From a virus (Duplodnaviria; Heunggongvirae; Uroviricota; Caudoviricetes), in IMG/VR virus record IMGVR_UViG_2721755721_000007: a DNA stretch of 42,037 nucleotides. One strand, given 5' to 3'. Every line of letters starts with the position of its first letter. The stretch's first letter is position 1. Positions 16,558-38,513 of this stretch are shown in pieces. Under the pieces are notes generated by a model. The model was given only the letters and a program-made list of their open reading frames with translations, ran no database searches and was not told where the DNA came from. The position numbers and the translations under genes are program-made.

Positions 16558-17338
16558 TTACGCCAGTTGTACGGACACGAACGCATCAGGGTCAGCCAGC
16601 AGCATCAGCGGTGCTGACTGAATCATGGTGAACTCACGCGCCGGATCGCCGGTGGTCACCCAGTTTTTCGGGTAGCGGGCAGAGGCGTTAATACCTTCGC
16701 GCTGTGCGTCCGCATCCTGAATGCAGCCATAGGTGCGCAGACCGCGTGCCTGAGAGTTCCCCAGCACCATCGTGTTGTCCGGAAGGAAGTTCTTTTTGAC
16801 GTCGTTTTCCACGTACTGTCCGGAATACACGACGATCGCCGTATCGCCATACATCCCCTTATAGGACACCGCTTCGCCCAGGTCTTTTACCGCTGTCTCC
16901 AGCTCGGAATTAGAGCCGCGACGGGTATCCAGCTTCTCCTTGACGGCTTTGAAGGAACGGAACAGCGCCCAGCCTTTCGGATCAAACACGATGATATTCA
17001 CCACTCCGCTGGCGTTCAGCGCATAGGCTTCGATATCGTCGGTCGGGTCATACGTGGACTTGTCACGCTTGCTCCACTCCGTACCACCGGACTGTGTGAT
17101 GTTGTTCGCCGCACTGCGGCCCATATCCACCTCAACCGGATCGAAGGCTTCACCGGTCATGGTGTATTTGCCCTTAAGCACAGCAGAAACTGCCTGCATC
17201 TCTTCGACCTGAGCAATGGCCAGCTCTTCGTCTCGCATGTTCTGCATGATGATGCGACGGCGGCGGTAAGCCGGGTCCGCCAGATTCTGCGGATCTTCAT
17301 CCGGCAGGCGACGCAGGGTCATCTGCGGATTCACCTCA
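16558..17338 (-). pseudogene. E: 3' fragment of major capsid gene E (lambda gpE residues ~83-341), separated from its 5' part by the island
   Basis: Encodes (E)VNPQMTLRRLPDEDPQNLADPAYRRRRIIMQNMRDEELAIAQVEEM...FVSVQLA, matching lambda gpE from residue 83 to the end; no credible start or RBS (the tracked start is a GTG inside the E frame). Confidence 0.9.
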
Positions 17339-17348: not shown

Positions 17349-17482
17349 ACATGAGTCAAATATGAAAGGATGTGAATGATTTGATTACGTTTTAGCTATA
17401 GAATTGAAATGGAAAATCCTTGAATGCAATACAACGTGCAATACATGGATGAAAACCATCACTCATTTAACAAGAGGAATCT

Positions 17483-18388
17483 ATGCGCTCACCCAACAGA
17501 ATGCATGAACGCTCAACATTTTATAAGTATATGTCGTTGAATACCGCGAAGATTGTTCTTGATTCATGCAGCCTTAGATGGAGTTCTCCGGTCCTATTTA
17601 ATGACCCTTTTGATGTTCCAAGAGAAGTTATGCCTGGTATTAACGAAATTAATATTGGCAAAGCTTTAGCCCGCAAGTTAATAGCGGAGTTGATTACCCC
17701 CAGAGAAGACATACAAAATTTAAACCCTAGAATTAGAACAATGCTAAGTGATTTCCAAAAGTCATTTCCTTTAGGCATACCCGCAGGATTAATTGAAAGA
17801 TTTCAAGAAATGGTAAACATTCCACCAGTTGGGATTGGCGCTCCTGCGGCAATACAAGAAATGAAAGATGTCTGGCGAGGAATGCTTAATAACAGAAGGA
17901 TTTTGTGTTTATCTGAGAGCCCTATAATCACTCCTATGTGGAATCACTATGCCGATAAATATAAAGGTATAGTTATCGAATTGGATTGTGTAGACTTTCT
18001 GGATAGCGCTTGGTTAATAGCCAAACCTATGAAATACACAGATGAAATGCCTCTAACTCACACTGCTGAAGGGATGGCCGAGTTGCTTTTCATGCCAGAC
18101 AATAAGTCAATTGAATATATCAATAATGAGATAATATTCATAAAAACAGAAGAATGGGCATATGAAAGAGAGTGGAGAATTTCAACCTACGCTAGGCCAA
18201 ATAGCACTGGTCAATATAGCGACTTAAAATTTCACCCTTTTGAGTTAAAATCTGTAATACTTGGTCCTCTTTTTGATGCCAGCGAGTTCGATGAAGTCGC
18301 ATCACTAGTTAAAATGTATCCAAGAGCGAAATTATTTAAAAGTTCATTTGGGAACGACAGAAAAATATCCATAGTACCACTACCTTAA
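17483..18388 (+). CDS. DUF2971-like protein (301 aa), island cargo gene
   Basis: N-terminal motif FYKYMSLNTAKIVLDSCSLRWSSPVLFNDPFD resembles the DUF2971 signature as I recall it. Good RBS (GAGGA 7 nt upstream of ATG). AT-rich relative to neighbours. Function unknown. Confidence 0.6.
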   Translation: MRSPNRMHERSTFYKYMSLNTAKIVLDSCSLRWSSPVLFNDPFDVPREVMPGINEINIGKALARKLIAELITPREDIQNLNPRIRTMLSDFQKSFPLGIPAGLIERFQEMVNIPPVGIGAPAAIQEMKDVWRGMLNNRRILCLSESPIITPMWNHYADKYKGIVIELDCVDFLDSAWLIAKPMKYTDEMPLTHTAEGMAELLFMPDNKSIEYINNEIIFIKTEEWAYEREWRISTYARPNSTGQYSDLKFHPFELKSVILGPLFDASEFDEVASLVKMYPRAKLFKSSFGNDRKISIVPLP

Positions 18389-18418
18389 AAGGTCAAATGC
18401 TTTTGACAAATAAAATCT

Positions 18419-18445
18419 ATCGCCAGTTTTACTGGCGACTTTTAA
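18419..18445. terminator. Bidirectional intrinsic terminator between the convergent DUF2971 and terS-like genes
   Basis: Hairpin CGCCAG-tttta-CTGGCG flanked by A/T-rich runs on both strands. Confidence 0.45.
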
Positions 18446-18494
18446 GCAACAAAGAACCACCTAAGCACTCTTCCTACCTATGGTTTCATTTGTT

Positions 18495-19046
18495 TTAACT
18501 TCGCTGATTATCCTTGATATACCTTTCAGCCATATCTGGAATGTTATCTGAGATCTGGTAAGCTCGAATAAATGCTTTACTGACCTCCATCTTAATGAAG
18601 TCCTGATACCGTTTTTCCATGCCAGGAAACTGTCGACAGATCGCAAGTGGAAGACTATCAATGATTGCTCCAACTTCCCCAGTTAATTTCGACAAGGCAT
18701 AAGTCGCAAATGCAGTGTCAATTACCTCACCTGTTTCGCTGGCATTCTTCAGTTCCTGTGCGTCGGCCTGCGCACGCGTAAGTCGATGGCGTTCGTACTC
18801 AATAGTCCCTGGCTGGAGATCTGTCTCGCTGGCCTGCCGCAGTTCTTCAACTTCCCGGCGCAGCTTTTCGTTCTCAATTTCAGCATCCCTTTCGGCATAC
18901 CATCTTATAACGGCGGCAGAGTCATAAAGCACCTCATTACCCTTGCCACCGCCTCGCAGAACGGGCATTCCCTGTTCCTGCCAGTTCTGAATGGTACGGA
19001 TACTCGCACCGAAAATGTCAGCCAGCTGCTTTTTGTTGACTTCCAT
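18495..19046 (-). CDS. Island terminase small subunit, Nu1-like (183 aa): N-terminal ~100 aa near-identical to the prophage Nu1, C-terminal ~80 aa divergent
   Basis: MEVNKKQLADIFGASIRTIQNWQEQGMPVLRGGGKGNEVLYDSAAV... matches the prophage Nu1 (36879..37424) to about residue 100, then diverges but stays alignable. Confidence 0.85.
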   Translation of the reverse strand: MEVNKKQLADIFGASIRTIQNWQEQGMPVLRGGGKGNEVLYDSAAVIRWYAERDAEIENEKLRREVEELRQASETDLQPGTIEYERHRLTRAQADAQELKNASETGEVIDTAFATYALSKLTGEVGAIIDSLPLAICRQFPGMEKRYQDFIKMEVSKAFIRAYQISDNIPDMAERYIKDNQRS

Positions 19047-19267
19047 TGTTCATTCCACGGACAAAAACAGAGAAAGGAAACGACAGAGGCCAAAAAGCTC
19101 GCTTTCAGCACCTGTCGTTTCCTTTCTTTTCAGGGGGTATTTTAAATAAAAACATTAAGTTACGACGAAGAAGAACGGAAACGCCTTAAACCGGAAAATT
19201 TTCATAAATAGCGAAAATCCGCGCGCCTGACGCCCCGTAGCCTGTCAGATCGCCGGAAAGGACCCGC
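18739..19267. repeat. ~0.53 kb segment near-identical to the prophage nu1 5' half plus cosB (copy of 37117..37643)
   Basis: Aligns base-for-base with 37117..37643 apart from a few substitutions and a divergent cosN block. Confidence 0.85.
19060..19240. other. Island cos site: cosB-like Nu1-binding repeats identical to the prophage, cosN region altered
   Basis: R-site-like GGAAACG repeats as in lambda cosB. At the cosN position (19225-19236) the island reads cgcctgacgccc where the prophage reads aggtcgccgccc (5 of 12 differ). Confidence 0.7.
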
Positions 19268-19291
19268 CAGCCAGAGCGGGCCCTAATTTCA

Positions 19292-19675
19292 TCAACCAAT
19301 CAGCTTATAGCGACCATCCCGTGCATTGCGGCGTACACGCTCAATCTTGAGGCATAGCGCCGCATCTGGCTTTTTTGGGACAGGTACGCGGCAATATTCA
19401 GAAGCGCGAGGAATATTATTTATCCAGTCGATCACTTCACTTAAATACCAGGCCTTACGCCCTTCCGTAACCTGCACACGCTCCGGGAACTCTCCACTAG
19501 CCTCAAGGTTTAGCAGTGTACGCCGACTCAGGGTTGTAATTTCCATCACCTGATTCATATCAACAAGGCGCTCGCTTAAACACATTTTGTCAGCGATAGC
19601 TTTTAATTCCTCTACAGCTGGATTCGGGTACATCATTTCGGCAATTGGCTTAAGGTCATTGTAATCATTTTGCAT
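19292..19675 (-). CDS. AlpA/excisionase-like HTH DNA-binding protein (127 aa)
   Basis: C-terminal half MEITTLSRRTLLNLEASGEFPERVQVTEGRKAWYLSEVIDWI resembles the phage AlpA-family HTH. Confidence 0.55.
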   Translation of the reverse strand: MQNDYNDLKPIAEMMYPNPAVEELKAIADKMCLSERLVDMNQVMEITTLSRRTLLNLEASGEFPERVQVTEGRKAWYLSEVIDWINNIPRASEYCRVPVPKKPDAALCLKIERVRRNARDGRYKLIG

Positions 19676-19686
19676 TGTATCCCCCT

Positions 19687-20028
19687 TTACACACGAGCCA
19701 GCGGCTGAACAGAAATACCTGAGCCAACAAACGCTGCAATCTTTACTGACAGTTCTTTTACAGACTCAGGCCAGTTCAGAGCATCAACATTTAAGACACC
19801 TGTCTTATAGACCTGAGCCTGTGTTTTTTTCGCGGTGTCGATTTGTACAGCGGAAACATAAACCGCTTTACCTACGCTCGAACCATCCCATACCACCAGT
19901 GCACCTGTTGCATCTTCCTGCATCAGTGGCGTAAATGCAGGAATTACCCCTTTATTAGCTGAAAATATCCCCAGCGTAGTCACCAGTGCTTCAGTGCCAG
20001 CCATGAGTTCAGTGTAATGAGTAGCCAT
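19687..20028 (-). CDS. Head decoration protein, lambda gpD homologue (113 aa), island-encoded
   Basis: TPLMQEDATGALVVWDGSSVGKAV... aligns with lambda gp[28 protein letters not shown]; similar length. Confidence 0.7.
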   Translation of the reverse strand: MATHYTELMAGTEALVTTLGIFSANKGVIPAFTPLMQEDATGALVVWDGSSVGKAVYVSAVQIDTAKKTQAQVYKTGVLNVDALNWPESVKELSVKIAAFVGSGISVQPLARV

Positions 20029-20037
20029 TGCTCCCCC

Positions 20038-21078
20038 TTAGCCAATGCGAACGGTAACAAAACGATTGATGCGGGCCGGTATTGGCTGTGGTGCTGAATG
20101 TGTCTGCACATATTCAATAGCCGGATCACCAGGCACAATATAGTTTTTCGGTGCAAGTTCGGCTTTAGTCAGCCCCATTCGGATTAGCTCCGGATCCTGA
20201 ATACCGCCATAGGCGACAATCCCCTGAAGAGCCGTATTGCCAAGCACCATCAAATCAGGATCAAGGAAATGTTTTTCAGTTCCGTCCTCGTCGGTATAAC
20301 GCCCGCTGTAAACAACAATCGCAACATCGCCCATATATCCTTTAAAACTCACCGAATCACCAAGGTCTTTAAGGGCCGTTTCCAGTTCGGAATTAGAACC
20401 ACGACGGGTATCCAGAGCCTCTTTTATCGCTCTGAATGAACGGTATTTCTTCCATACATTACCGCCCATAATGATGATATTAGTGACGCCCTCACTAAAT
20501 TCTGCGTAGCTCTCAATATCATCATTTGGATCAAAAGTTTCTTTATCCTTACCTGACCACTCAGTACCGCCAGACTGAGTGATGATATTTTGTGGTTTAA
20601 TATTCCAGTCCAGCTCATAACGTTCAATACCATCGCCCTCAATGATATTTTTCCCCGTTGTGATTGCCTGAACGGCAAGCCATTCAATACGTGCACGAAT
20701 AGCTTTAGCTTGATTTACAATCGCCTGTTTAACTTTAATATTACGCGCCCCAAAAGCATTGTATTGCTCAGGTGATACACCAGCAGGGCGCACAGCTAAC
20801 TTATTTGGATCAATGCTGCTTTTCGGCTTCATATAGCCTGGACGAATTGTTTTTGATTCGTACCCTTCGTCACGTGAAACTTTACTACCCACCATAGGAG
20901 AACAAAACGCTGCAATTGGGATATTTGGATCGTCGATTGTATCAAGAATAATATCGCGCGATCCAAACATTACCGAGCGAGTAAAAAACAAACTGGTAAA
21001 CAACGCATTTAGTTGTTTTTGTACATCTACAGCATTAACCACCTGTACAAGCTGGGTAGGCGAATATAAATCAACCAT
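20038..21078 (-). CDS. Major capsid protein homologue, lambda gpE family (~346 aa), island-encoded
   Basis: About 50% identical to lambda gpE over the C-terminal two-thirds (ITQSGGTEWS..., DTRRGSNSELETA.KDLG, GDVAIVVYSG). Start taken at MVDLYSPTQ, with AAGAGG 6 nt upstream; the tracked ORF extends a further 71 codons. Confidence 0.85.
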   Translation of the reverse strand: MVDLYSPTQLVQVVNAVDVQKQLNALFTSLFFTRSVMFGSRDIILDTIDDPNIPIAAFCSPMVGSKVSRDEGYESKTIRPGYMKPKSSIDPNKLAVRPAGVSPEQYNAFGARNIKVKQAIVNQAKAIRARIEWLAVQAITTGKNIIEGDGIERYELDWNIKPQNIITQSGGTEWSGKDKETFDPNDDIESYAEFSEGVTNIIIMGGNVWKKYRSFRAIKEALDTRRGSNSELETALKDLGDSVSFKGYMGDVAIVVYSGRYTDEDGTEKHFLDPDLMVLGNTALQGIVAYGGIQDPELIRMGLTKAELAPKNYIVPGDPAIEYVQTHSAPQPIPARINRFVTVRIG

Positions 21079-21252
21079 ACGCATCCTCTTTGCATTCATT
21101 AAAAATAATTGTGGATATATGCTATCACCGATATTTGTCATGCGAACACATGCAACCGAGTGCAATGTTGTATAAAGTTTTGGGGTGACAACTTCAGTGC
21201 GGACAATTAGTGTTAATATCTTCACTCCCTTTGGTCGGGATTTATGTAGCAT

Positions 21253-21283
21253 GCCGGAAAATTTATTTTTTCCGGCTTTTTTT
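21253..21283 (+). terminator. Terminator-like hairpin oriented against the island late operon
   Basis: GCCGGAAAA-tttatt-TTTTCCGGC followed by TTTTTTT on the plus strand, in the SSB/capsid-homologue intergenic region. Confidence 0.4.
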
Positions 21284-21294
21284 ATTGGCAATAT

Positions 21295-21744
21295 TTAAAA
21301 CGGGATATCATCTCCCCATTGCTCATTATCTCCCTCTGGTGGCTGGCTTCCTTGCTGATCTGCCTGTTGTTTTGCTCTGTTCAGTGCGTCAGTAGCCTGC
21401 CCCTGTTGGCCTTTTTTGCCGCCCGGTCGCACCGATCGCGCACTGATTACGCTGTCTGCGATAACCTGCCAGCCCTGCCGCGTTTCGCCGTTCTGTCCAG
21501 TCCACTGGCTCATCTGCATGTTACCCGCCACGCTCAGGAGTTCGCCTTTGTGATGCTTTGCCAGCGCGTCGGCTTGTCTGCCAAACGCCAGGACAGATAA
21601 CCACAACGTCGCCAGACCGTCATCCGACTGACTGCAGGGCAGTGATACCGCCATACGCGCCAGCGTCATGGGGGTGCCCTTGCTGGTCTGTTTTGTCTGC
21701 GGGTCGTCCACCAACCGCCCGTAAACTGATATTTGCGCCGTCAT
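21295..21744 (-). CDS. ssb: Single-stranded DNA-binding protein (149 aa)
   Basis: OB-fold-like N-terminus, Gly/Gln-rich linker and the acidic C-terminal tail ...WGDDIPF typical of bacterial and phage SSB. Confidence 0.8.
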   Translation of the reverse strand: MTAQISVYGRLVDDPQTKQTSKGTPMTLARMAVSLPCSQSDDGLATLWLSVLAFGRQADALAKHHKGELLSVAGNMQMSQWTGQNGETRQGWQVIADSVISARSVRPGGKKGQQGQATDALNRAKQQADQQGSQPPEGDNEQWGDDIPF

Positions 21745-21998
21745 GCTGCCTGCTCTCCGGACTTAATATTGATTGTTGTCACTTCCTCCGCTTCAGCAAT
21801 CTCCCGTTCGGTCAGCGTGGCAAAGTTTGCAGCCGCCGTTGTCATGAATGCGCTTATCAGTTCGGGATGTGCTTTCGCGTATCCTTCCCCGGCGTTGCGG
21901 TCTATTGCCTTAATCGCCACCCTTAGCCAGTGTTCAGCCATATCAAGGGCGCGGTAATGTGGCTTTATATGTTTGTTCAGTTTTCCTGATGTGTGCAT
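21741..21998 (-). CDS. Hypothetical protein (85 aa)
   Basis: ORF tightly coupled to ssb (4-nt overlap); no recognised motif. Confidence 0.4.
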   Translation of the reverse strand: MHTSGKLNKHIKPHYRALDMAEHWLRVAIKAIDRNAGEGYAKAHPELISAFMTTAAANFATLTEREIAEAEEVTTINIKSGEQAA

Positions 21999-22039
21999 TT
22001 TTATTTTTACCCCCTCGTTTAAAAAGTTTTTTGTGCACC

Positions 22040-22277
22040 ACCACCTTGTCTACCTTGTCTACCTGATTAGTTATCAGGCCAGTAATGGCGCGGGTTTCAG
22101 GGAGGTAGACAGCCCCAAATAGCTGTCTACCTCATCTCTACCCGTCTCCTTACCTGTCTACAAAAATGGGTAGATAAGGTAGATAACAGGTAGACAGTGA
22201 AAAATAGTTATCTACCTGCATTAATACATTGAAATAAAAGTATTTTCTTTCAGTCAGGTAGACAAGGTAGATAACCA
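22040..22277. repeat. Iteron array, putative island replication origin
   Basis: At least 10 copies of an 8-bp GGTAGA(C/T)A motif in both orientations within ~240 bp, immediately 3' of the primase-helicase gene. Confidence 0.75.
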
Positions 22278-22287
22278 TTGCCATTTT

Positions 22288-24039
22288 TTATAAAAACGCA
22301 TCGCAATCATCAGTAGTCGTTGCGTTGGTCTGCGTGACTCCCTTAACTTTTCGCGTAATATATTCATATCCGTAAACTTTCGCCGCTGACCTCATAGCCT
22401 TTCCGAACTCATTCACGCTCAAACATTTCCCCTTTCCTGTGTATGCCATGAAGGCCATATAGACACGGTAAAGGCTGTTTCTGGTCGTGTACTTCACGGT
22501 GTCACCACCACCGCCCATCATTAGCCCACGAGCTTCCTCCAGAAACTCCAGCGCCGCGCAAAGCTCAACAACCGGATCCGTTTGCTGCTTTATTGCCAGA
22601 GCTTCATCACCGTCACGCTGTTCCAGTAATAAAGCCCGTGCCTTTTCAGGGGCAGCAAAATTAGCCAGCAAGCGGCGGATAATTACGGGGATTTCTGCCG
22701 CTATCTTTTCCGGTAATTCCTTGTCTTTTTCGTCCTCCCTTACAATGTTGTCGAACCGGAAAATCACCCGACGGCGTGACACACCTCCGGCCCGTTCGGT
22801 AAAGATCATCGGGTCGTTATTGGTTGCCAGTACCACCGCCCTTATTATCGTCGTGAATCGCTTCTCATATTTCGGGTTAATTTCAACGGGATCGCCTCCC
22901 GTGATTTTCTTGATGCCCGTGCCTTCCCCCGTATATTTCGGCTGATCGGCAAGGACGATAAGACGACTCCCGACAACCTGCGCGCGCCCTCCTGCATCAT
23001 CGAGTGATGTCATCTCCGCGCTTACGGTGTTCTGTTTGCCAGCAAGCAGGGTGGCAATATGGGTAAATGTACTCTTACCGCTTCCCCCGTCTCCGGTGGC
23101 CTCAATGAACATCTGCCAGTCGTAGCGGTTCGCCATAATCATGTATAACGCGGCACATATACGCATCATCTTACGCGGGTCTTTTCTTGCAGCATGTTCA
23201 AGCCATTTATGGAAATTTGGCGCATTATCGCGGATGTTTTCCCCTGCTACTGGTGGCGTGTACTCAATGCCATTGTGCGTGGTGCTCCAGTGCTCCGGCG
23301 AGTGCGGAGAAAATTCCCCCGTTTTCAGGTTAAGCACACCATTAGTGAACGGTAGCAAATCACCGGACGGCTCCCCCATGGGGTCGGCAATAACTTTTAA
23401 CGCTTCCACGGCGTTATTGATTACACGTTTGCTGAACGTGGCCCTGTGCTCTGAATAGATCGCCACCATTTCGCGGCTCAGCTCCATTGTGCTGACCGGA
23501 CACCATACCCCGCCGCGCCATACGTGGACGATTTCACTTTCTGCATGAACACACACACCATCAAAGCGATCGGCAAGTAGTTGTGCACGTTCACTGTCTG
23601 CCATCTGTGAAAGTTGCGCCTTTTGCTTCGTCGGAAGATTAAGCACCAGACTTTCCCCACGCTCGCATTCCTCTTTGAGTCGCGGCAACTGCTCGGATAA
23701 ATCCACTGGGCTGGTGTCAGTAATCCCCGCGTATTCGTGTACGGTCTTCACTCCAGCCACAGCCAGTAACGTAACAATCTGCGTCATGCTGTGCTCTGTG
23801 ATATGTCCTGCGCGGTAAACACGCACACACTGACGATCTTCATCAATGATCCGGTAATCGGTGATATTTTTCAGTTGCTCATCAGCCAGCACGACAGGCG
23901 GCACATCGTCGGCGGCAATATGTTTACCCGCCCATTCCCGCCACTCTTTCGCATGGCTCCACGCATCACTACCTGCAAAGATGATTACCTCTGTCAGTCT
24001 GTCGCGTGGCTGTTTTTTTAAGTTCGGTGCCAGTTTCAT
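22288..24039 (-). CDS. Primase-helicase (P4/D5-like, SF3 helicase domain), 583 aa
   Basis: Walker A GDGGSGKST and layout typical of the P4-family primase C-terminal domain; positioned as a PICI pri-rep gene next to the iterons. Confidence 0.8.
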   Translation of the reverse strand: MKLAPNLKKQPRDRLTEVIIFAGSDAWSHAKEWREWAGKHIAADDVPPVVLADEQLKNITDYRIIDEDRQCVRVYRAGHITEHSMTQIVTLLAVAGVKTVHEYAGITDTSPVDLSEQLPRLKEECERGESLVLNLPTKQKAQLSQMADSERAQLLADRFDGVCVHAESEIVHVWRGGVWCPVSTMELSREMVAIYSEHRATFSKRVINNAVEALKVIADPMGEPSGDLLPFTNGVLNLKTGEFSPHSPEHWSTTHNGIEYTPPVAGENIRDNAPNFHKWLEHAARKDPRKMMRICAALYMIMANRYDWQMFIEATGDGGSGKSTFTHIATLLAGKQNTVSAEMTSLDDAGGRAQVVGSRLIVLADQPKYTGEGTGIKKITGGDPVEINPKYEKRFTTIIRAVVLATNNDPMIFTERAGGVSRRRVIFRFDNIVREDEKDKELPEKIAAEIPVIIRRLLANFAAPEKARALLLEQRDGDEALAIKQQTDPVVELCAALEFLEEARGLMMGGGGDTVKYTTRNSLYRVYMAFMAYTGKGKCLSVNEFGKAMRSAAKVYGYEYITRKVKGVTQTNATTTDDCDAFL

Positions 24040-24335
24040 TTTTTGCCCCTGAATGCGTTAATCATGCTTTTCATTTTCTGGATGTTTCCCCGCGCTTTTT
24101 CCCTGCTGATGGGCTTACTGCGGGGTGCGGCATATACCAGGGAAAAATCACGCCGGAACTGATAAACAGGCATCACGCAGTCATAGCTATACCCCTCACG
24201 GCGGTAAGTGATGCGCCGTTCTGCCACGCCTTTAATCGTTACTGTGCCGCCGTATTTATCGCGGTAAATATCGCCGTTCATAAATTCAGGCCGAGCGGGG
24301 CCGCTGGCAATAAAGCCAGAATTTTTCATTTCCAT
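24036..24335 (-). CDS. Hypothetical protein (99 aa), translationally coupled to the primase
   Basis: ATGA overlap with the downstream primase start; no recognised motif. Confidence 0.45.
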   Translation of the reverse strand: MEMKNSGFIASGPARPEFMNGDIYRDKYGGTVTIKGVAERRITYRREGYSYDCVMPVYQFRRDFSLVYAAPRSKPISREKARGNIQKMKSMINAFRGKK

Positions 24336-24352
24336 ATTATTTATTCCTCGAC

Positions 24353-24574
24353 TTAACTCGACTTATTTGATAGCAGGGCACTATTTATTGCGTCATTGAG
24401 TTTTTCTGCTGATTCATCAATAAGTGACAACAGGCCATAAGCAATATTTGCATCTTCATTGTCATTTATGCAATCAAGCCACATATTTAATATTGCTTTT
24501 GCTGAATTATTTAAAGTTAATGAACTTTCTGCACATGCTAACAATTTAAAAAAGACTTCCCGTTCTGTATTCAT
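24353..24574 (-). CDS. Hypothetical small protein (73 aa)
   Basis: Part of a head-to-tail run of small ORFs in the island early operon; AT-rich. Confidence 0.35.
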   Translation of the reverse strand: MNTEREVFFKLLACAESSLTLNNSAKAILNMWLDCINDNEDANIAYGLLSLIDESAEKLNDAINSALLSNKSS

Positions 24575-24766
24575 TTAATCCCCCACCAGCTTACTTTCTT
24601 CCTCAATCAGGAAACTAGCGACACTTCCCGAAAGGCGCGCCAGTAGGCTCGCCAGCGCGGATATATCAGCATCTGTAATTTTGTTCGGGTATACCTCAAG
24701 AAGGCGGCAAATAATTTCTGTCTGGTGCGCACGTTCAGCGGCTTCGTGTAATGTGATTTCCTGCAT
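24575..24766 (-). CDS. Hypothetical small protein (63 aa)
   Basis: Tightly packed ORF in the same operon. Confidence 0.35.
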   Translation of the reverse strand: MQEITLHEAAERAHQTEIICRLLEVYPNKITDADISALASLLARLSGSVASFLIEEESKLVGD

Positions 24767-24951
24767 TAATGCACCTCTTTTAATTCATACACTGCTGAAA
24801 TAATGACTTGTGATAAGCCATATTCTGATGATTCGCTTCTCACCGCAGCAATAGCCGTCTGAACATTAACAGCCTTCACGTTCTGAGTGATACCAATTGT
24901 GTGGCCCAGTGGGTTAACAGCTCGGGCAAATACACGGAAGGTTTTAAGCAC
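24766..24951 (-). CDS. Hypothetical small protein (61 aa)
   Basis: Tightly packed ORF in the same operon. Confidence 0.35.
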   Translation of the reverse strand: MLKTFRVFARAVNPLGHTIGITQNVKAVNVQTAIAAVRSESSEYGLSQVIISAVYELKEVH

Positions 24952-25207
24952 GGCACACCTCCTGACGAATACGGGCGGCGAATATCATCACGTAGCCAGT
25001 TGGGGATTGCTGGCGGGCTTCCTGTTCGCTGGCGGCCTCGATGTGTATTACGCGTGGTTGTGCGGTGCTCAGGGCGATAAAACGCCAGATGTATTTATTC
25101 AGGTTGTGCGAATCCCGCCCTTGCGGGTGTGTGGTATGATTTCTCATAGCTACCTCGATACTGTTGCTATCGTTGGTGGTTAGACGCCCTGTATGTGTTG
25201 CGAGCAC
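24944..25207 (-). CDS. Hypothetical small protein (up to 87 aa; start uncertain)
   Basis: First ORF of the leftward operon, divergent from the RHH gene; an internal Met (MRNHTTHPQ...) is a possible alternative start. Confidence 0.35.
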   Translation of the reverse strand: MLATHTGRLTTNDSNSIEVAMRNHTTHPQGRDSHNLNKYIWRFIALSTAQPRVIHIEAASEQEARQQSPTGYVMIFAARIRQEVCRA

Positions 25208-25244
25208 TGCAGGGCGTTGTTATATAGCAATAAAACATGATAAG

Positions 25245-25286
25245 GTGTGTACCTATCAAGAATCATACTAAGCAATAGGTACACAC
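25245..25286. promoter_or_regulatory. Perfect 12-bp inverted repeat (GTGTGTACCTAT-N18-ATAGGTACACAC) abutting the RHH start codon; putative operator
   Basis: Read directly; arms at 25245-25256 and 25275-25286, lying in the divergent intergenic region between the early operon and the RHH gene. Confidence 0.55.
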
Positions 25287-25481
25287 ATGTCAACTATCAT
25301 TCAACGTGATAAACAACCGAAAGGTGCAGGTAAAGCACCAGCATTCCAAGTCCGTATTAACCCAGAATTAAAAGAACAAATGGTTAATGTCGCTGCCAAA
25401 GAAGGGATGAGCTTAGGTAACTGGCTAAAAGAACTGGCTCGTGCCGAACTAATAAAACAAGGAATAACACCTAAAGGCTGA
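25287..25481 (+). CDS. Small ribbon-helix-helix (CopG/Arc-like) DNA-binding protein, 64 aa
   Basis: Predicted beta-strand FQVRINPELKEQM followed by helices VNVAAKEGMSLGNWLKELARAEL; typical RHH layout. Confidence 0.6.
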   Translation: MSTIIQRDKQPKGAGKAPAFQVRINPELKEQMVNVAAKEGMSLGNWLKELARAELIKQGITPKG

Positions 25482-25504
25482 TAATTTGCATAAAGGATTC
25501 TTCT

Positions 25505-26854
25505 ATGACAACAAGTCACAAAATGCTAGAAATCAGTAAAGAACAATTTGATGTATTTTTCTATGGTCGTACACCATACGTAAAAACCTTTTCGGAGGAA
25601 ATCTGTTGGTTCAAATTTATAAAGGATGATGTCACGATCTTAGCAACAATTGTTTTTTGTAAAATAGATAATGATTACAACGCTATATTTCTAGGTAGGG
25701 ATTTAGATAAAAAATTTAGAGCGATTAAAGTAATTGTATCCCGTGAATCTAAAGATGATTTAATTACTGATATGGAAAAAGCCATACCAGAGCTATTATC
25801 ACTACACAAGAACGGTTGTTTTATACAGGGTGACGAATCAGAGTCGGCATTTTCAATATTCCTAGCCAAAGTTCCAGAACATAAAAAAAACGTTTATCTA
25901 AGAATGCTACTTGAGGAACCCAAACACTATCCTGCATTTATTGTTATGCAAGAGTTAGCTTATTGGTGTAAAGATCCTGATGGAATATTCATCAGAGATT
26001 TCCAGAGTGCTTCATTTAACTCTCGCTTATTCGAACTTTATCTAAACGCAGTTTTCTACGAAATGGATTTCGTAATATGCAGAGATTATGCTCAACCTGA
26101 TTATATTATCTCAAAAAATGGCATTGATATTGCTGTAGAAGCTGCCACAGTTGCAGAACAAGAGGAACCTACCGAGAAATTGATACTTGATCATGAGGCA
26201 GTAGAAGATCTTCAGAGATATGTAAAAGAACAAATGCCATTCAAATTTGCCCGCACTCTATTAAAGAAAGTTAGGCATAAACCTGAACCCTTAAAATTAT
26301 GCTATTGGGAACTAGATCATACAAAAGGAAAGCCTTTCATTATTGCTTTACACGATTACTCACGCAGATTTTCGATGAGTATATCAATGCCAGCACTACA
26401 AAGCTATCTGTATGGTGTAGATATGGATTCTGGAAGTAAAATTGAACAACATTTATTTGAAAATCGAAGTATACAATCTAATTTTTTCGGCTCTAATAAA
26501 AATGAGAATGTCTCAGCCATATTACTTGCGACACATGCCACCATCCCAAAATTTGATAGGATGGGAGTAGTGGCAGGGATTGAACAAAAAAATGTCAAAT
26601 CCATCGTTAGAGGTATTAAAACTGATGAAGGCTGTACCCCAATGCCTTTTACTGCTCTTGTCAATGCACCTTCATATCAAGAACCATGGTGTACAGCAAT
26701 ATACATGTTTCATAATCCGAAGGCATTAAATCCTATACGCCCTGAATTATTCCCAAGAGTTATTCATATTTTTGAAGAAGATGGAGAAATAGTTCAATAC
26801 TTACCACCTAATTATATAATCTCATCAACTACGCACGTATTTGAATTTAAGTGA
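25505..26854 (+). CDS. Orphan protein of unknown function (449 aa), co-oriented with and 24 bp downstream of the RHH gene
   Basis: Long uninterrupted ORF in a markedly AT-rich segment; no Walker A, HEPN, or other motif I can recognise. Confidence 0.6.
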   Translation: MTTSHKMLEISKEQFDVFFYGRTPYVKTFSEEICWFKFIKDDVTILATIVFCKIDNDYNAIFLGRDLDKKFRAIKVIVSRESKDDLITDMEKAIPELLSLHKNGCFIQGDESESAFSIFLAKVPEHKKNVYLRMLLEEPKHYPAFIVMQELAYWCKDPDGIFIRDFQSASFNSRLFELYLNAVFYEMDFVICRDYAQPDYIISKNGIDIAVEAATVAEQEEPTEKLILDHEAVEDLQRYVKEQMPFKFARTLLKKVRHKPEPLKLCYWELDHTKGKPFIIALHDYSRRFSMSISMPALQSYLYGVDMDSGSKIEQHLFENRSIQSNFFGSNKNENVSAILLATHATIPKFDRMGVVAGIEQKNVKSIVRGIKTDEGCTPMPFTALVNAPSYQEPWCTAIYMFHNPKALNPIRPELFPRVIHIFEEDGEIVQYLPPNYIISSTTHVFEFK

Positions 26855-26905
26855 TTTCAAATCCTATGGGTTTACCCCATAGGATTACATCCACTGTCTA
26901 AATTC

Positions 26906-27127
26906 TTACCACTCTCCCCTAATCCATGCCTGCACTTCTGAAAGACGATATGCAACAGCAGTGGAACCAATCTTGATCCGCTTAGGAAATTTTCCTTCCT
27001 TCTCCAGCTTCCAGCGTGTGCTGTTCGCAAGAGTGGTTAGCTCCCGACATTCTTTCTCACGGATCATACGATCGATATTAGGAATGTACTCCAGACCCTT
27101 TTTATCGACAATTGCCATTTTTTTCAT
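26906..27127 (-). CDS. alpA: AlpA-family transcriptional regulator (73 aa)
   Basis: MKKMAIVDKKGLEYIPNIDRMIREKECRELTTLANSTRWKLEKEGKFPKRIKIGSTAVAYRLSEVQAWI is a typical AlpA HTH. Confidence 0.8.
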   Translation of the reverse strand: MKKMAIVDKKGLEYIPNIDRMIREKECRELTTLANSTRWKLEKEGKFPKRIKIGSTAVAYRLSEVQAWIRGEW

Positions 27128-27176
27128 GTTAACCAGCCTTTTGTTTGTAAGCGACTCGTCAGAACCGTATTGATAT

Positions 27177-28748
27177 TTACTGAGAGCTCAGATCAACTTT
27201 CCAGGGCAACAGATCGCGTACCCGGTTTGCCGGCCAGTCCTGGATATGTTCAATGACGTAACGCAGCCACTTTTCTGGCTCCACATTGTTCAGACGGCAT
27301 GTGCCGATCAGCGAGTACAACACCGCCGCATGTTCACCACCGCTGTCGGAACCCGCGAACATCCAGTTTTTCCGGCCTACGGCCACTCCCCGTAAGGCGT
27401 TCTCTGCGATGTTGTTGTCGATTTCCACCCAGCCATTACTGCAGTACACGTTCAGTGCATCCCACTGTTTCAGCAGGTATGCGAACGCTTTTGCCGTATC
27501 TGAGTGACGCGACAGTGTTTTCATCTGTTGCTGTATCCAGTCATACAGTGACTGCATCAGTGGCGCGGCTCTGGCTTTTCTTGCCGCCAGACGCTGTTCT
27601 GCTGAACAGCCCCGGACCTCTGCCTCGATGGCATACAGTTCACCGATACGCTGCAGGGCTTCCGTGGTGATGTAGGTGGGCGCTCTTGCATGCACATCGT
27701 GGATTTTTCTCCGGGCATGAGCCATACACGCGGCTTCCGTTATTCTGCCGGATTCGTATAACGCCCGGTAACCACCGTAAGCATCGGCCTGAAGCACACC
27801 GCTGTAACCGGCCAGGTGATTTTGTGGATGGATACCTTTCCGGTCCGGACTGTACGCGAACCAGACCGCCGGGGGCATCTGTGAACCGGCGTTACGGTCA
27901 TCACGGACGTAGACCCACAGCCGGGCTGTCCGGGTTTTACCGCTGCCCGGCTCCTGGACCGGGACGGGGATATCATCAGCATGGACTTTACCGGGCATCA
28001 GCACATACTGGCGCAGGACGTCATACAGCGGCTCCAGCAGTTCAGCAACAGCACCTGTCCAGCGCCCCAGTGTGGCACGGCTCAGCTCCACTCCCTGACG
28101 ACGGTATATTTCTGACTGGCGGTATAACGGCAGATGGTCTGCATATTTCCCGGTGACAACATGGGCCAGAAGCCCCGCTCCGGCATAACTGCGTGCAATG
28201 GGTTTTGAAGGTACTGGTGCCTGCACGATATGGTCGCACCGGCAACAGGCCTGTTTCGGACGTTGTGTTTCGATAACCTTAAAGGCGCTGCTGATAAGCT
28301 CCAGTTGCTCTGACACATCACATCCCAGAGAACTGAGTTCACCACCACAGGCAGGACAGCATTCCTCTTCCGGCCGGATAACCCGGGTTTCACGGGGAAG
28401 TGAGGCCGGTAACGGTTTACGGGCTGAAGACTGGCGCAGGGCGGATGGCAGTACCGGGTCATATTGCTCACCCAGCGTTTCCGCCATTTCTTCCTGAAGT
28501 GCGCTGATTCGCTCCTGTGCTTCCTGTATCTGCCGTTCGGTTTTTGCACGAAGTTTTTCTGAGCTTTTACCGAACTGCATACGTTGCAGTTTCGCAACCA
28601 GCGCCTTCAGCCGGTTGATTTCGGAAGCATAAGCCGCCACCCGCTGTGAGAGCAGGCGGTTGTATTCAGCCATCTGGCGGATGGTGTCCTGTTGCGTCTG
28701 CAACAGTGCCCGCAGGCGGGCGTTCTCATGAGCAAGTGAGGTGTCCAT
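27177..28748 (-). CDS. IS66-family transposase TnpC (523 aa)
   Basis: Leucine-zipper-like N-terminus, CxxC...CxxC zinc-finger region and DDE core typical of IS66 TnpC. Confidence 0.85.
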
Positions 28749-28767
28749 ATCCTCACTTTACAACGGG

Positions 28768-29115
28768 TTATATGCGGATTCCAGCGCGTTCCGTTCGTTT
28801 CGGGTGCTTCCAGTTGATACCTTCAAGAAGCATGGATAACTGAGCCGGAGTAAGGTGCACCTTGCCGTCACGGGTGACTGGCCAGACGAAGCGGCCCCGC
28901 TCCAGGCGTTTGGTGAAGAGGCACAGTCCGTCACTGTCAGCCCACAACACTTTTATCTGGTCACCCCGGCGTCCGCGGAAGATGAACAGGTGTCCGGAGA
29001 ACGGGTCATCCTTCAGGACGTTCTGAACTTTTGATGCCAGGCCGTTAAAGCCATTTCGCATATCGGTGATACCTGCAACCAGCCAGATACGCGAACCTGC
29101 AGGGAGAGATATCAT
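28768..29115 (-). CDS. IS66-family TnpB (115 aa)
   Basis: MISLPAGSRIWLVAGITDMRNGFNGLASKVQ...HLFIFRGRRGD is the conserved IS66 Orf2. Confidence 0.85.
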   Translation of the reverse strand: MISLPAGSRIWLVAGITDMRNGFNGLASKVQNVLKDDPFSGHLFIFRGRRGDQIKVLWADSDGLCLFTKRLERGRFVWPVTRDGKVHLTPAQLSMLLEGINWKHPKRTERAGIRI

Positions 29116-29792
29116 CAGTGGCTGCTCCCTTTTATTTCGCGGATAAGTGTCTGTAATAACGCCGGCGTCAGTTTACCTTTAAGCCTGAGAGTTCCGGCCG
29201 GCAGAACCAGCTCACAACACAGACTGTCGGACGGTGTATTTATCTGCTCTGGTTCCTGTGCGGGGGCCGGGATTTTATTATCCGGCTCCGGCGTTAACGT
29301 CACGGGAAGCAGTGCCGGCATATTTTTTCCGGAAGGCAGCAGGCCACCTTTCCGGTATTGATGGCGCCAGTTGAAGAGCAGGTTATCGTTGATTCCGTTT
29401 TCCCGGGCGATCTGCGCCACACAGGCTCCGGGCTGTAGTGACTGCTCCACTAAGGCGATTTTAAACTCATAAGGGAAGTTGGGCCGCCGGGGACGTTTTT
29501 TTACCACGGGGGCTTCGGATATAACGGTGCTTTCAGGACGTACGACTGGTACCGTGGAAAATTGTCCGTAAAGGCAGGCATCAAGTTCCTGCTCCGACAT
29601 GCCTGCGGGCAAAGGCCACGAAAGGCCAGCTCTCCGAAAGCGCACGAACATACTACAAACTGTTGATTTTGGTACACTCAGGCGACGCCCGGCCACAACC
29701 CGGGGTAAATGTTCTTCAAAGTGAAGACGTAAAGCTTCAGTGATCCAGGTCCGGTGTTTCATACGATAGTGTCCATTAAAAATGATGGACAT
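29115..29792 (-). CDS. IS66-family TnpA/Orf1-like HTH protein (start uncertain; tracked ORF 225 aa)
   Basis: Contains the HTH motif PGACVAQIARENGINDNLLFNWRHQYRKGG typical of IS66 Orf1; the long N-terminal extension may not all be translated. Confidence 0.6.
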   Translation of the reverse strand: MSIIFNGHYRMKHRTWITEALRLHFEEHLPRVVAGRRLSVPKSTVCSMFVRFRRAGLSWPLPAGMSEQELDACLYGQFSTVPVVRPESTVISEAPVVKKRPRRPNFPYEFKIALVEQSLQPGACVAQIARENGINDNLLFNWRHQYRKGGLLPSGKNMPALLPVTLTPEPDNKIPAPAQEPEQINTPSDSLCCELVLPAGTLRLKGKLTPALLQTLIREIKGSSH

Positions 29793-31072
29793 TATTTTTG
29801 TAGAGCCGGAGGAAACAGACCAGACGGTTTAAATGAGCCGGTTACCTTTTGTTTGAGGATTGTCACTTTTGAATCAGCACCTGCGATGCTATTGAGATAT
29901 GTAGTCCAGAGTTCCAGAGCATCCAGTTTTTTAGCCATAAACTTACTCCGGTTGTAAACACCTGCCACGCCAGGTAGCGCATGGCCTAACAGTTGTTCTA
30001 CTACATAAAATTCAACACCGAGATCACTTAGATGAGTAGATAGCGTTCTTCTAAGGTCGTGTAGTGACCATTGTTTTTCATGGCCCAAACGTTTACCGAT
30101 TTTCCCCCCAATCTTGCTTACGCTTTCTCTAATTCGCAGACTTCCCAGCACATAACCAGTATGTTTTGTCTCTTCGTGAACATCCGTTACCCACTGTCGT
30201 AGAATTTCAGGTACTGGTCTGACGATTTCAACACCAGTTTTTGAGTGATCTTTTGGTACAGTCCAAACCCAACTTTCGAGATCCCATTCGCTCCATTCTG
30301 ATAATCGGGCTTCACTCATTCGACATCCAAATACTGTACAAAGCACAAACATTTTTCGCGTGTATTCAGACATTAGTTTTAAATCAGGCTCGACAAAAAT
30401 TGCCTTCCAGAGCTGGCCGAGTTCGGCTTCATCCAGAACCCGATCCCGCTTACCTGCAATCTGCCCCACATCACTCATGCGCAAATCCTTTAAAGCATCA
30501 CACGTCGCGTACTGGCGTACCCGACAAAAACGAAGAGCTAATTTAGTGTCAGAAAAAACATACGCCGCCATAACTGGTGCATTACGTTTAATTCGGTCAA
30601 AACAGTCCAGCCATTCATATAGGTGAGTGTCATTTACGGGCAAATGACCGATATAGGGAAAGATATGCTTTCGAAATCTGCCAAGCGTTACAGCATGAGT
30701 TTTACGACGCACCTTACAGTAATTTTCATACCAGTAATTTAGTGCATCCTCCACTGTGACCGGCTTTAAGCGTTCTTCAGCCTGAATCTTAATCTGGATA
30801 CGCGGATCACGTTTGTCAGCCAACCAACCACGGCACTCGTCGCGCTTTTCCCTTGCCTGTTTGAGTGACATATCAGGATATTTACCCAACGTTAGCCAGA
30901 CCGGAGCAGCCCGGCCACCTGCTAACCTGTAGAAGAAAACAAAGCTCACAGCCCCTTTAGTACTCACACGAATAGAAAGCCCCTTTCCATCAGCAATGGT
31001 GATCTGCTTTTCTCTGGGTTTCCCCAGATATCCTTTAAGCGCTTTGTCGCTCAGTTTGTTCTCGCCAGCCAT
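29792..31072 (-). CDS. int: P4-type tyrosine integrase; native 3' end interrupted by the IS66 at ~29846
   Basis: H-x-x-R box (HDLRRT), LLGH and a conserved Tyr in GVYNR near the C-terminus. Start taken at MAGENKLSDK. The reading frame runs into the IS, adding ~18 foreign codons. Confidence 0.85.
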   Translation of the reverse strand: MAGENKLSDKALKGYLGKPREKQITIADGKGLSIRVSTKGAVSFVFFYRLAGGRAAPVWLTLGKYPDMSLKQAREKRDECRGWLADKRDPRIQIKIQAEERLKPVTVEDALNYWYENYCKVRRKTHAVTLGRFRKHIFPYIGHLPVNDTHLYEWLDCFDRIKRNAPVMAAYVFSDTKLALRFCRVRQYATCDALKDLRMSDVGQIAGKRDRVLDEAELGQLWKAIFVEPDLKLMSEYTRKMFVLCTVFGCRMSEARLSEWSEWDLESWVWTVPKDHSKTGVEIVRPVPEILRQWVTDVHEETKHTGYVLGSLRIRESVSKIGGKIGKRLGHEKQWSLHDLRRTLSTHLSDLGVEFYVVEQLLGHALPGVAGVYNRSKFMAKKLDALELWTTYLNSIAGADSKVTILKQKVTGSFKPSGLFPPALQK

Positions 31073-31234
31073 TTTTAGCCCCAAAAAGCAATACAAGCTG
31101 CAATACAGAGATGATTGCAACACACAGATAACGAGGAAAATTCAGTGAAAGCACCAGATAAACTTATTCTTTATTATCAAAAGATTAAGTGTAAAAACCA
31201 GCAACTACACGAAAGCCTCAGAAAGCCATGCTAA

Positions 31235-31244
31235 GTGCTTCGGC
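31235..31244. repeat. 10-bp att core / direct repeat TGCTTCGGCT (island left junction)
   Basis: Identical to 17339-17348; capsid gene E sequence resumes on the far side. Confidence 0.75.
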
Positions 31245-31480
31245 TTGACATATCCCGGTGTAAATTCAGAGGTGGAGCCGCCACGGGAGCGGATAACCTC
31301 ACCGGAAACAATCGGCGAAACGTACAGCGCCATGTTTACCAGTCCCGGAATTTGTGAGAGATAGACTTTCTCCGTGGTGAAGGGATAGCTCTCACGGAAA
31401 AAGAGACGCAGAAACAGCGGATCAAACTTAAATTTCTTCTCATTTGCCGCCAGCAGCTGGGCGGTTGTGTACATCGACAT
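31235..31480 (-). pseudogene. E: 5' fragment of major capsid gene E (codons 1-82), reading into island DNA to a stop at 31205
   Basis: MSMYTTAQLLAANEKKFKFDPLFLRLFFRESYPFTTEKVYLSQIPGLVNMALYVSPIVSGEVIRSRGGSTSEFTPGYVKPKH matches the lambda gpE N-terminus, then 9 foreign codons (LAWLSEAFV). Confidence 0.9.
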
Positions 31481-31535
31481 AAAAAAATCCCGTAAAAAAA
31501 GCCGCACAGGCGGCCTTTAGTGATGAAGGGTAAGG

Positions 31536-36904: not shown

Positions 36905-37424
36905 TCAGCAACCCCGGTATCAGTTCATCCAGCGCGGCTGCTTTGTTCATGGCTTTGATGATATCCCGTTTCAGGAAATCAACATGTCGGTTTTCCAGTT
37001 CCGGAAAACGCCGCTGCACCGACAGGGGGATCCCGTCGAGAATACTGGCAATTTCACCTGCGATCCGCGACAACACGAAAGTACAGAATGCGGTTTCCAC
37101 CACTTCAGCGGAGTCTCTGGCATTCTTCAGTTCCTGTGCGTCGGCCTGCGCACGCGTAAGTCGATGGCGTTCGTACTCAATAGTCCCTGGCTGGAGATCT
37201 GCCTCGCTGGCCTGCCGCAGTTCTTCAACCTCCCGGCGCAGCTTTTCGTTCTCAATTTCAGCATCCCTTTCGGCATACCATTTTATGACGGCGGCAGAGT
37301 CATAAAGCACCTCATTACCCTTGCCACCGCCTCGCAGAACGGGCATTCCCTGTTCCTGCCAGTTCTGAATGGTACGGATACTCGCACCGAAAATGTCAGC
37401 CAGCTGCTTTTTGTTGACTTCCAT
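36879..37424 (-). CDS. nu1: Terminase small subunit Nu1 (181 aa)
   Basis: Matches lambda gpNu1 over its full length. Confidence 0.9.
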
Positions 37425-37439
37425 TGTTCATTCCACGGA

Positions 37440-37620: not shown

Positions 37621-37812
37621 TGTCGGATCGCCGGAAAGGACCCGCAAAATGATAATAATTATCATCTGCATGTCACAACGTGCATCTACGCCATCAAACC
37701 ACGTCAAATAATCAATTATGACGCAGGTATCATATTAATTGATCTGCATCAACTTAACGTAAAAACAACTTCAGACAATACAAATCAGCGACACTAAATA
37801 CGGGACAACCTC

Positions 37813-38087: not shown

Positions 38088-38513
38088 ATGGAAGGTACTA
38101 CAATGGCTCAGGTTGCCATTTTTAAACAAATATTCGATAAAGTGCGAAATAATTTAAACTATCACTGGTTTTATTCTGAACTAAAACGTCACAATGTCTC
38201 ACATTACATTTACTATTTAGCTACAGAGAATATTCATCTTGTTCTTGAAAACGATAATACGGTTTTAATAAAAGGACAGGGTAAGGTTGTAAATGTAAGA
38301 TTTTCAAAAAATAAATGCCTTATAGAAGCCACCTTAAAAGGATTCAAATCAGGAGAGTTATCATTTTACGAATACAGGAAAAATCTTGCTACAGCAGGGG
38401 TTTTCAGATGGATTACAAATATCCACGAAAACAAAAGGTATTACTATACCTTTGATAATTCATTACTCTTTACTGAGAACATTCAGAACACTACACAAAT
38501 ATTTCCGCACTAA
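38088..38513 (+). CDS. Hypothetical protein (~136-141 aa), homologue of a lambda right-end ORF
   Basis: MAQVAIFK...[15 protein letters not shown]...[26 protein letters not shown] matches the ORF next to bor in lambda from memory; start is either 38088 or the MAQVA Met at 38103. Confidence 0.6.

Follow-up and report, generated by a model that had tools for sequence, protein, structure and literature searches.

The virus record IMGVR_UViG_2721755721_000007 (Caudoviricetes), a stretch of 42,037 nucleotides referred to here as the window, carries at positions 25,245 to 26,854 two plus-strand genes preceded by a perfect inverted repeat. The first gene encodes a 64-aa ribbon-helix-helix (RHH) protein. 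The second encodes a 449-aa protein that we identify, from its match to a defence-system profile, as the anti-phage protein PD-T7-1. With a probability of about 0.72, the PD-T7-1 gene would be a cassette in the 5' accessory slot, between the RHH gene and alpA/int, of a helper-embedded phage-inducible chromosomal island (HE-PICI). It would lie behind, and be co-transcribed with, the gene for an Arc-like protein that autoregulates and represses the early operon of the satellite. The data on which this proposal rests are the identity of PD-T7-1, the boundaries of the cassette, the fold and family of the RHH protein, the conservation and covariation of its operator and the conserved promoter hexamers. 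From these we infer DNA binding and repression by the RHH protein, the transcription start sites and co-transcription of the two genes.

The 449-aa protein as PD-T7-1

Both open reading frames (ORFs) noticed in a first-pass annotation of the window are present (Table 1). The perfect inverted repeat is also as described: the arms GTGTGTACCTAT and ATAGGTACACAC, separated by an 18-nt loop, are fully complementary, and the final base of the right arm directly precedes the ATG of the RHH gene at 25287. The 449-aa protein had been regarded as having no recognisable motif. This holds for Pfam and NCBIfam, where no match was found at E values up to 1, but not for PADLOC and PHROGs, which both match. 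The PADLOC model of PD-T7-1 (PDLC04073) covers residues 7-447 of the protein with positions 1-448 of its 452-position profile (E 1.3e-153, 510 bits). Of the remote-homology searches suggested earlier, Foldseek of the AlphaFold2 model against the PDB was not significant; the PADLOC profile gave the full-length match. On the strength of this match, identification as PD-T7-1, that is, as an allele of the same system, is secure. PD-T7-5 (E 7e-39) and PHROG 8571 (E 7.5e-90) match from residue ~111-118 to 424-444. They have a core in common with PD-T7-1 but do not possess its ~110-aa N-terminal domain.

The prototype of PD-T7-1 was found by functional selection in E. coli ECOR46 (protein RCQ85672.1, gene 2183-3533; Vassallo et al. 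2022, PMC9519451). The gene was active when it was the only one cloned, on a low-copy plasmid. PD-T7-1 protects from T7 and, to a greater degree, from T-even phages; a separate study reported protection against a Teseptimavirus. The validated ECOR46 fragment (2138-3835) includes 45 bp upstream of the gene, without RHH gene or palindrome (PMC9519451). Because this short upstream stretch sufficed, PD-T7-1 is autonomous and needs no RHH protein. Prototype and window proteins match over their full length, both have 449 residues, and both are single-gene systems of an E. coli mobile element; we see no substantive difference between them. Anti-phage protection, measured in the prototype, is a predicted property of the window allele. 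Identical copies of the window's protein, named "hypothetical protein", occur on 187 contigs. We collected 177 homologues, nearly all of 445-500 aa, from Enterobacterales, Pseudomonas, Burkholderia and others.

Could the 449-aa ORF be a decayed or untranslated remnant? Decay does occur in the family. Several members of the cluster are partial, and the copy of E. coli SCU-316 (locus L001, 6406-7757) has a frameshift behind codon 27, so that its RefSeq annotation is a 360-aa protein with an internal start. The window ORF, on the other hand, is intact, has a Shine-Dalgarno sequence and the length of the validated prototype, recurs unchanged on the contigs mentioned above and aligns at 100% coverage with homologues of 60-99% identity. 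The pseudogene reading was rejected on the intact, prototype-length ORF, and we give it next to no credit. The protein is thus no longer the least explained of the window as to its identity, although that earlier description is still fair as regards its molecular mechanism. A false orphan is thereby removed, and PD-T7-1 should replace the annotation of the locus as a hypothetical protein with a "HicB antitoxin" partner.

An Arc-like ribbon-helix-helix protein

The assignment of the 64-aa ORF to the RHH proteins is upheld by an Arc profile match, by the helices of the AlphaFold2 model and by Foldseek, which agree. A profile of the family aligns residues 12-59 with residues 2-49 of P22 Arc (E 7.6e-5). 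In this alignment A19, Q21 and R23 face Arc Gln9, Asn11 and Arg13, which we take to be the base-contacting residues of the Arc-operator crystal structure, PDB 1PAR. The AlphaFold2 model consists of an extended segment followed by helices 26-38 and 43-57. Foldseek places Arc on top; 14 of the 15 best matches are RHH proteins, the exception being the anti-CRISPR AcrIF25, and so are most of those ranked below. The match with 1myl has a TM score of 0.84 on the target. PHROG 228, an Arc-like repressor, matches as well (E 1.2e-5), and the Pfam Arc and HicB matches lie just under the gathering score (HicB, 20.3 bits for a cut-off of 21). All members of the family come from Enterobacterales.

Arc represses both Pant and Pmnt. 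The likeness with P22 Arc and its immI operator extends to the fold, to the aligned base-reading positions and to the location of the operator within overlapping opposed promoters. There are also differences. The RHH family of the window has a conserved 17-residue N-terminal tail. Arc has a single 21-bp operator bound by a tetramer, whereas two RHH sites, 30-33 bp apart from centre to centre, are proposed here. Finally, the element is a satellite and not a phage, and its RHH protein is a putative DNA binder.

The palindrome is conserved and covaries with the RHH protein

Taken by itself, the inverted repeat is weak evidence: perfect 12-nt repeats with a loop of at most 60 nt are expected 0.145 times per Markov-simulated 42-kb window, and 10.5% of the simulated windows hold at least one. 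We take it as real because it is conserved in position across loci. A scan of one genome per species yielded 80 RHH loci from other genomes, and the palindrome was compared in 68 distinct loci. An inverted repeat lies directly 5' of the RHH start codon in 59 of the 68 distinct loci. In these repeats, the first 10 arm positions are 95.9% complementary, as against 4-20% when the register is slid, and compensating double changes are found at arm positions 3-6. The window itself contains no more copies of the operator beyond chance.

Among these related loci, the sequence of the arm goes with that of the RHH β-strand. Arm GTACGTAC is associated with PTFQIRI (35/35 loci) and arm GTGTGTAC with PAFQ (8/8). 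Arms GTATAGAC or GTATGGAC accompany P[LMI]F[NS]V in four of four loci, and arms GTGTACAC or GTGCACAC accompany PPFHM in six of six. The arm classes map one-to-one onto RHH positions 19 and 21, those of Arc Gln9 and Asn11. This suggests that the protein binds the arms sequence-specifically through its β-sheet.

The same data bear on another explanation, in which the palindrome is an RNA hairpin of the RHH leader that sequesters the Shine-Dalgarno sequence and start codon or terminates transcription. Folding of the complete repeat as RNA gives -16.9 kcal/mol (z -4.96), the right arm contains an AGG and abuts the ATG, and the compensating changes preserve pairing. A hairpin, however, does not account for the tracking of β-strand residues by the arms; since a protein operator does, the pattern is explained by the latter. 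In addition, the exceptions to Watson-Crick pairing (9 G/T, 9 A/C and 6 other) show no G-U bias. A rightward transcript started by the conserved motif TGnTAnnGT would begin inside the left arm, and from 25253 on no hairpin is left (-1.4 kcal/mol, z +0.65). A leftward transcript would hold one arm only. The hairpin was rejected on the covariation, the lack of G-U bias and the start inside the left arm, and we regard it as quite improbable.

Two predicted, opposed promoters around the operator

A -35/-10 scanner predicts a near-consensus leftward promoter that overlaps the start of the RHH gene (Table 1). Its -35 hexamer, TTGACA, is kept in 65 of the 68 distinct loci. A -10 hexamer having A2 and T6, at least three of six matches and a spacing of 16-19 nt is found in 62 of the 68. 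The -35 hexamer falls within coding sequence: of 55 loci, 52 encode RHH Ser2 by TCA, while codon 3 is free to vary at its third position. Retention of TCA next to a variable wobble position therefore argues for a constraint at the DNA level. On the other strand, the motif TGnTAnnGT, whose last 2 nt overlap the left arm, is kept at this position in 49 of 59 loci and is a candidate extended -10 element of the RHH/cargo promoter. It escaped the -35/-10 scanner, in which extended -10 promoters are not modelled.

The first-pass annotation had left two readings of the RHH protein open. Of these, repression of the divergent early operon is the better supported, as judged from the promoter layout and the covariation of arms and residues. 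In the proposed mechanism, RHH dimers would read both arms of the palindrome through β-strand residues A19, Q21 and R23. The right arm would fill the spacer of the strong leftward promoter, TTGACA-17-TAGTAT, which would drive the early/replication operon. The left arm would cover the leftward start site as well as the -10/+1 region of the rightward RHH promoter. Binding would keep the satellite early operon silent and would autoregulate the RHH transcript. PD-T7-1, located 23 nt downstream with its own Shine-Dalgarno sequence, would ride on the RHH maintenance transcript. Co-transcription is implied by this linker, which leaves no room for a terminator, and the presence of a Shine-Dalgarno sequence in it suggests that the cargo is translated from the same rightward transcript. 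The defence protein would be expressed while the satellite is quiescent, resembling rexAB behind cI in lambda. In both cases defence would come from the repressor operon of a quiescent element; the proteins are unrelated, and co-transcription of the RHH and PD-T7-1 genes is a proposed feature.

No Rfam family was found in the island at E values up to 1, and no P4-type CI/C4 or isrK immunity RNA was detected. The remaining candidate for the immunity factor is a protein repressor.

A narrower view is that the RHH protein regulates its own rightward operon only, setting the dose of the cargo, and that AlpA or helper read-through governs the early operon. Published models of Gram-negative PICIs (GN-PICIs) and HE-PICIs do invoke AlpA and helper late transcription, and the left arm overlaps the candidate rightward -10. 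Yet the right arm lies in the leftward spacer and the left arm over the leftward start site, and the leftward -35 is conserved through codon choice. The conserved -35 and the placement of the arms argue that both promoters share the operator. Moreover, the RHH gene persists in islands devoid of cargo. We consider control of the rightward operon alone unlikely.

An exchangeable cassette behind the RHH gene

The pair had been described as much more AT-rich than its surroundings. This is true of the 449-aa gene (GC 0.345) but not of the RHH gene, whose GC content of 0.41 is near that of the island backbone (0.44-0.46; alpA 0.446, int 0.45, early small genes 0.461; whole window 0.52). In strains N1420 and RM14723, an unrelated 241-aa gene lies behind the same RHH gene (nucleotide identity ~92% and ~90%). 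When a locus with this 241-aa cargo (L002) is compared with the window, homology stops at 25477 and restarts at 26907. The exchanged unit is therefore delimited by the stop codons of the RHH gene and of alpA. Among the E. coli complete genomes matching the 5' region of the RHH gene, only 2 of 962 also have the 449-aa gene. By these comparisons, PD-T7-1 is a cargo cassette and the RHH gene belongs to the backbone of the satellite.

In the 80 loci, the RHH gene is followed either directly by alpA/int or by between one and five genes on the plus strand, which belong to many unrelated families. Since BLASTP with the window's alpA and int is too insensitive to map these genes in distant loci, the limits of the cargo there rest on ORF orientation. 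Cargos of the slot include Avs5, UzuA (Uzume), methyl-directed restriction enzymes (mREase_II), an HNH protein and the PemK toxin. No PADLOC match at E ≤ 1e-5 was obtained for 22 of the 27 cargo proteins scanned. PD-T7-1 homologues of 60-75% identity occupy the same slot, behind an RHH gene, in Buttiauxella, Edwardsiella, Enterobacter and Serratia. Outside Enterobacterales, the homologues at the loci examined have no RHH gene. Distant ones stand alone in defence islands, adjoining Mrr, Shedu, PRTase-CE and OLD-TOPRIM/UvrD genes, and one sits in a Laribacter prophage.

This distribution decides the other reading left open earlier, a toxin-antitoxin-like or defence pair. Its defence part stands, since the 449-aa protein is PD-T7-1; the two-gene module does not, since the RHH gene mostly occurs without the 449-aa gene. 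On this reading the RHH protein would serve as antitoxin and autorepressor, neutralising the 449-aa effector or controlling it specifically, in a two-gene defence module or one akin to a type II toxin-antitoxin system. RefSeq does label the RHH protein "HicB family antitoxin", in keeping with the weak Pfam HicB match; the two genes are tightly adjacent, and the 60-75% homologues just mentioned also follow an RHH gene. However, most of the 80 loci have an RHH gene with unrelated cargo or none, the 449-aa gene is rare among the E. coli genomes holding the RHH 5' region, and the RHH stop codon is where the swapped segment begins. At 64 aa the protein is too short for the HicB N-terminal domain, and no HicA or other toxin domain was found among the neighbours. 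PD-T7-1 was cloned and functional without RHH, and homologues do without it outside Enterobacterales. The RHH-free ECOR46 clone and the distribution of cassette and homologues therefore rule out a toxin-antitoxin or obligate two-gene module, to which we assign a very small probability.

Known defence hotspots resemble the slot. PICIs reportedly harbour immune systems at the 5' or the 3' end (PMC11364771). The PICI 5' accessory region and the P2/P4 hotspots are likewise variable and AT-rich, have core genes on their flanks, lie near int/alpA and contain defence systems. Unlike them, the slot of the window has a conserved regulator gene as its left anchor, and the cassette would be the second cistron of the regulator's operon. 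We found no description of such an arrangement in the literature searched.

Linkers of the other cargos are mostly 19-40 nt long and have a Shine-Dalgarno sequence; 5 of 17 are longer (64-94 nt). A cassette-borne promoter, TGATAATTT, at the RHH stop codon was considered. Because no such motif recurs in the other cargo linkers, it is not proposed as a general feature. A stem-loop separates the convergent PD-T7-1 and alpA genes (-18.9 kcal/mol, z -4.1 on the plus strand; -21.6 kcal/mol, z -4.95 on the minus strand). It is probably a bidirectional transcript end or a stabiliser.

Two PD-T7-1 loci have unusual neighbours. In Pseudomonas fluorescens HK44 (L088, 4748-7410), a homologue of 469 aa and 53% identity overlaps by 4 bp an upstream gene for a 418-aa RVT_1 reverse transcriptase; this overlap suggests that PD-T7-1 may, in some lineages, be the effector of a reverse transcriptase-based defence. 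In Serratia marcescens (L085-L087), PD-T7-1 (63% identity) follows a divergent 59-aa RHH gene with a different palindrome, TGTGTAATTACACA. The island is degraded there and adjoins PIN-TPR-GreABC and HetE-N genes, in a probable defence cluster.

Table 1 Features of the RHH/PD-T7-1 locus in the window
Feature	Position	Strand	Remarks
First gene of leftward early operon	24944..25147	-	annotated as Icd-like in RefSeq relatives; small ORFs, DUF4222 and primase come next
Candidate extended -10 of rightward RHH/cargo promoter, TGaTAAGGT	25238..25246	+	conserved motif TGnTAnnGT
Operator left arm, GTGTGTACCTAT	25245..25256		overlaps last two bases of candidate rightward extended -10; ~+2 to +13 of leftward promoter
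Leftward promoter -10, TAGTAT	25265..25270	-	in loop between arms; 17-nt spacer; 10/12 consensus matches
Operator right arm, ATAGGTACACAC	25275..25286		within 17-nt leftward-promoter spacer; contains Shine-Dalgarno-like AGG of RHH gene; ends at ATG
Arc-like RHH protein, proposed repressor	25287..25481	+	64 aa
Leftward promoter -35, TTGACA	25288..25293	-	within RHH codons 1-3 (ATG TCA AC.)
Exchangeable cargo cassette	25478..26906		GC 0.345; RHH stop codon to alpA stop codon
RHH/PD-T7-1 linker	25482..25504	+	23 nt; AAGGA Shine-Dalgarno at 25493-25497
PD-T7-1 anti-phage defence gene	25505..26854	+	449 aa, intact
Stem-loop between convergent PD-T7-1 and alpA	26860..26886		11-bp stem, no U-tract
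alpA, right-hand anchor of cargo slot	26906..27127	-	AlpA-family regulator/excisionase; Pfam Phage_AlpA E 2.7e-15

Predicted nuclease core of PD-T7-1

The AlphaFold2 model of the 449-aa protein is confident, with a pLDDT of 92.5 and a pTM of 0.91. The protein comprises an N-terminal α/β domain (~1-110), a predicted PD-(D/E)xK-like core and a C-terminal β-rich domain. In 47 aligned sequences, E177, P198-D199, E212 and K255 are invariant. The original authors reported weak HHpred matches with Hjc, PDDEXK and RmuC over residues 171-219 of PD-T7-1 (PMC9519451), a segment that coincides with the invariant E177, D199 and E212. The assignment to the PD-(D/E)xK nucleases is weak, if plausible, and we tentatively infer such an activity.

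Points against the model and its possible reach

Several points weigh against the proposed model. The loci compared are phylogenetically related and amount to ~4-5 classes, so the class counts overstate the number of independent events. The leftward promoter is a consensus match, and the rightward one is deduced from the conservation of a motif. In published GN-PICI models the activator is AlpA, and no repressor at the RHH position is described in the GN-PICI literature searched. Helper late-transcription read-through has been proposed as the driver in HE-PICIs. As the ECOR46 clone worked with 45 bp upstream, PD-T7-1 may have a weak promoter of its own, or may have profited from read-in from the vector. 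For the nuclease, the canonical ExK lysine is absent, E212 being followed by A213 and A/V/S214; the invariant K255 may stand in for it. No close solved relative of the PD-T7-1 model emerged from Foldseek against the PDB, and neither a profile search of PDB sequences nor Pfam gave a match.

The data also allow a broader reading, held tentatively and at somewhat less than even odds. RHH protein and palindrome would form a so far undescribed maintenance (immunity) switch of many enterobacterial PICI/HE-PICI satellites, and at least four co-evolving specificity classes would act as "immunity groups". The RHH transcript would be an expression socket for defence cassettes (PD-T7-1, Avs5, Uzume, restriction enzymes and unknown genes) swapped by recombination between RHH and alpA. 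PD-T7-1, PICI accessory regions and HE-PICIs are already published. A literature search for an RHH regulator in PICIs gave nothing relevant, and neither a conserved RHH/operator switch anchoring the slot nor its specificity classes were found described.

The model of the RHH switch offers a concrete and testable account of how a satellite family would be silenced and its defence cargo expressed. The one-to-one classes of operators and residues can be read as a natural table of specificities for such a repressor. The slot behind the RHH gene lends itself to mining for new defence genes; most of its cargo has no PADLOC model.

The host satellite and its prophage

The locus belongs to an island that splits the gpE-type major capsid gene of a lambdoid prophage into two parts (31205..31507 and 16558..17334). 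The island is ~13.7 kb long (about 17426-31107) and contains int, alpA, primase, SSB, a Phage_cap_E capsid gene, a decoration gene and a Nu1 homologue. On the minus strand are int (29792..31123), alpA and primase (22288..24039). In RefSeq relatives, a truncated capsid gene is annotated beside int. By its gene set and its integration in a late gene, the island is classified as an HE-PICI.

The HE-PICI site E:Phage_cap_E was described by Tommasini, Mageeney and Williams 2023 (PMC10111431). As in those islands, int, alpA and primase are co-oriented with the gpE cognate into which the island is inserted, and capsid E, decoration, Nu1 and cos sequences have been captured. The named HE-PICI genes are called unidirectional in that paper, which does not discuss the counter-oriented RHH/cargo pair. 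Beyond the published HE-PICI, the window copy has an IS66-family insertion at the int/alpA junction. This element (27148-29844; ORFs of 225, 115 and 523 aa) lies at the 3' end of int, where it replaces the last int codons and parts alpA from int; by comparison with E. coli SCU-316, whose copy is uninterrupted, ~11 bp occur in duplicate.

A 20-nt direct repeat of 90% identity (17426-17445 and 31088-31107) is a candidate att core. The island's own Phage_cap_E is 47.5% identical to the C-terminal capsid fragment of the prophage. A 559-bp copy of the prophage cos/Nu1 5' region (18709-19267 vs 37087-37645, 95.7% identity) and a complete homologue of the Nu1 small terminase (18495..19046, Pfam E 3.6e-84) imply cos-type packaging by the helper.

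Other observations concern the rest of the window. In the prophage, a low-GC patch (0.33-0.42) at 37501-38500 adjoins the cos/Nu1 end; its 141-aa plus-strand ORF (38088..38513) matches no PADLOC model. A second AlpA-family gene (19292-19675, minus strand; 127 aa, Pfam Phage_AlpA E 7.6e-9) stands at the late end of the island, beside the decoration gene. At the other end of the island from PD-T7-1, a second counter-oriented AT-rich cargo (17483-18388, plus strand, GC 0.379) encodes a 301-aa DUF2971 protein that matches the PADLOC candidate system PDC-S31 (E 3.4e-31). Directly downstream of primase (22102-22133 and 22203-22279) are a perfect 12-nt inverted repeat, GAGGTAGACAGC N8 GCTGTCTACCTC, and a 37-nt imperfect one, which may be the replication origin of the island.

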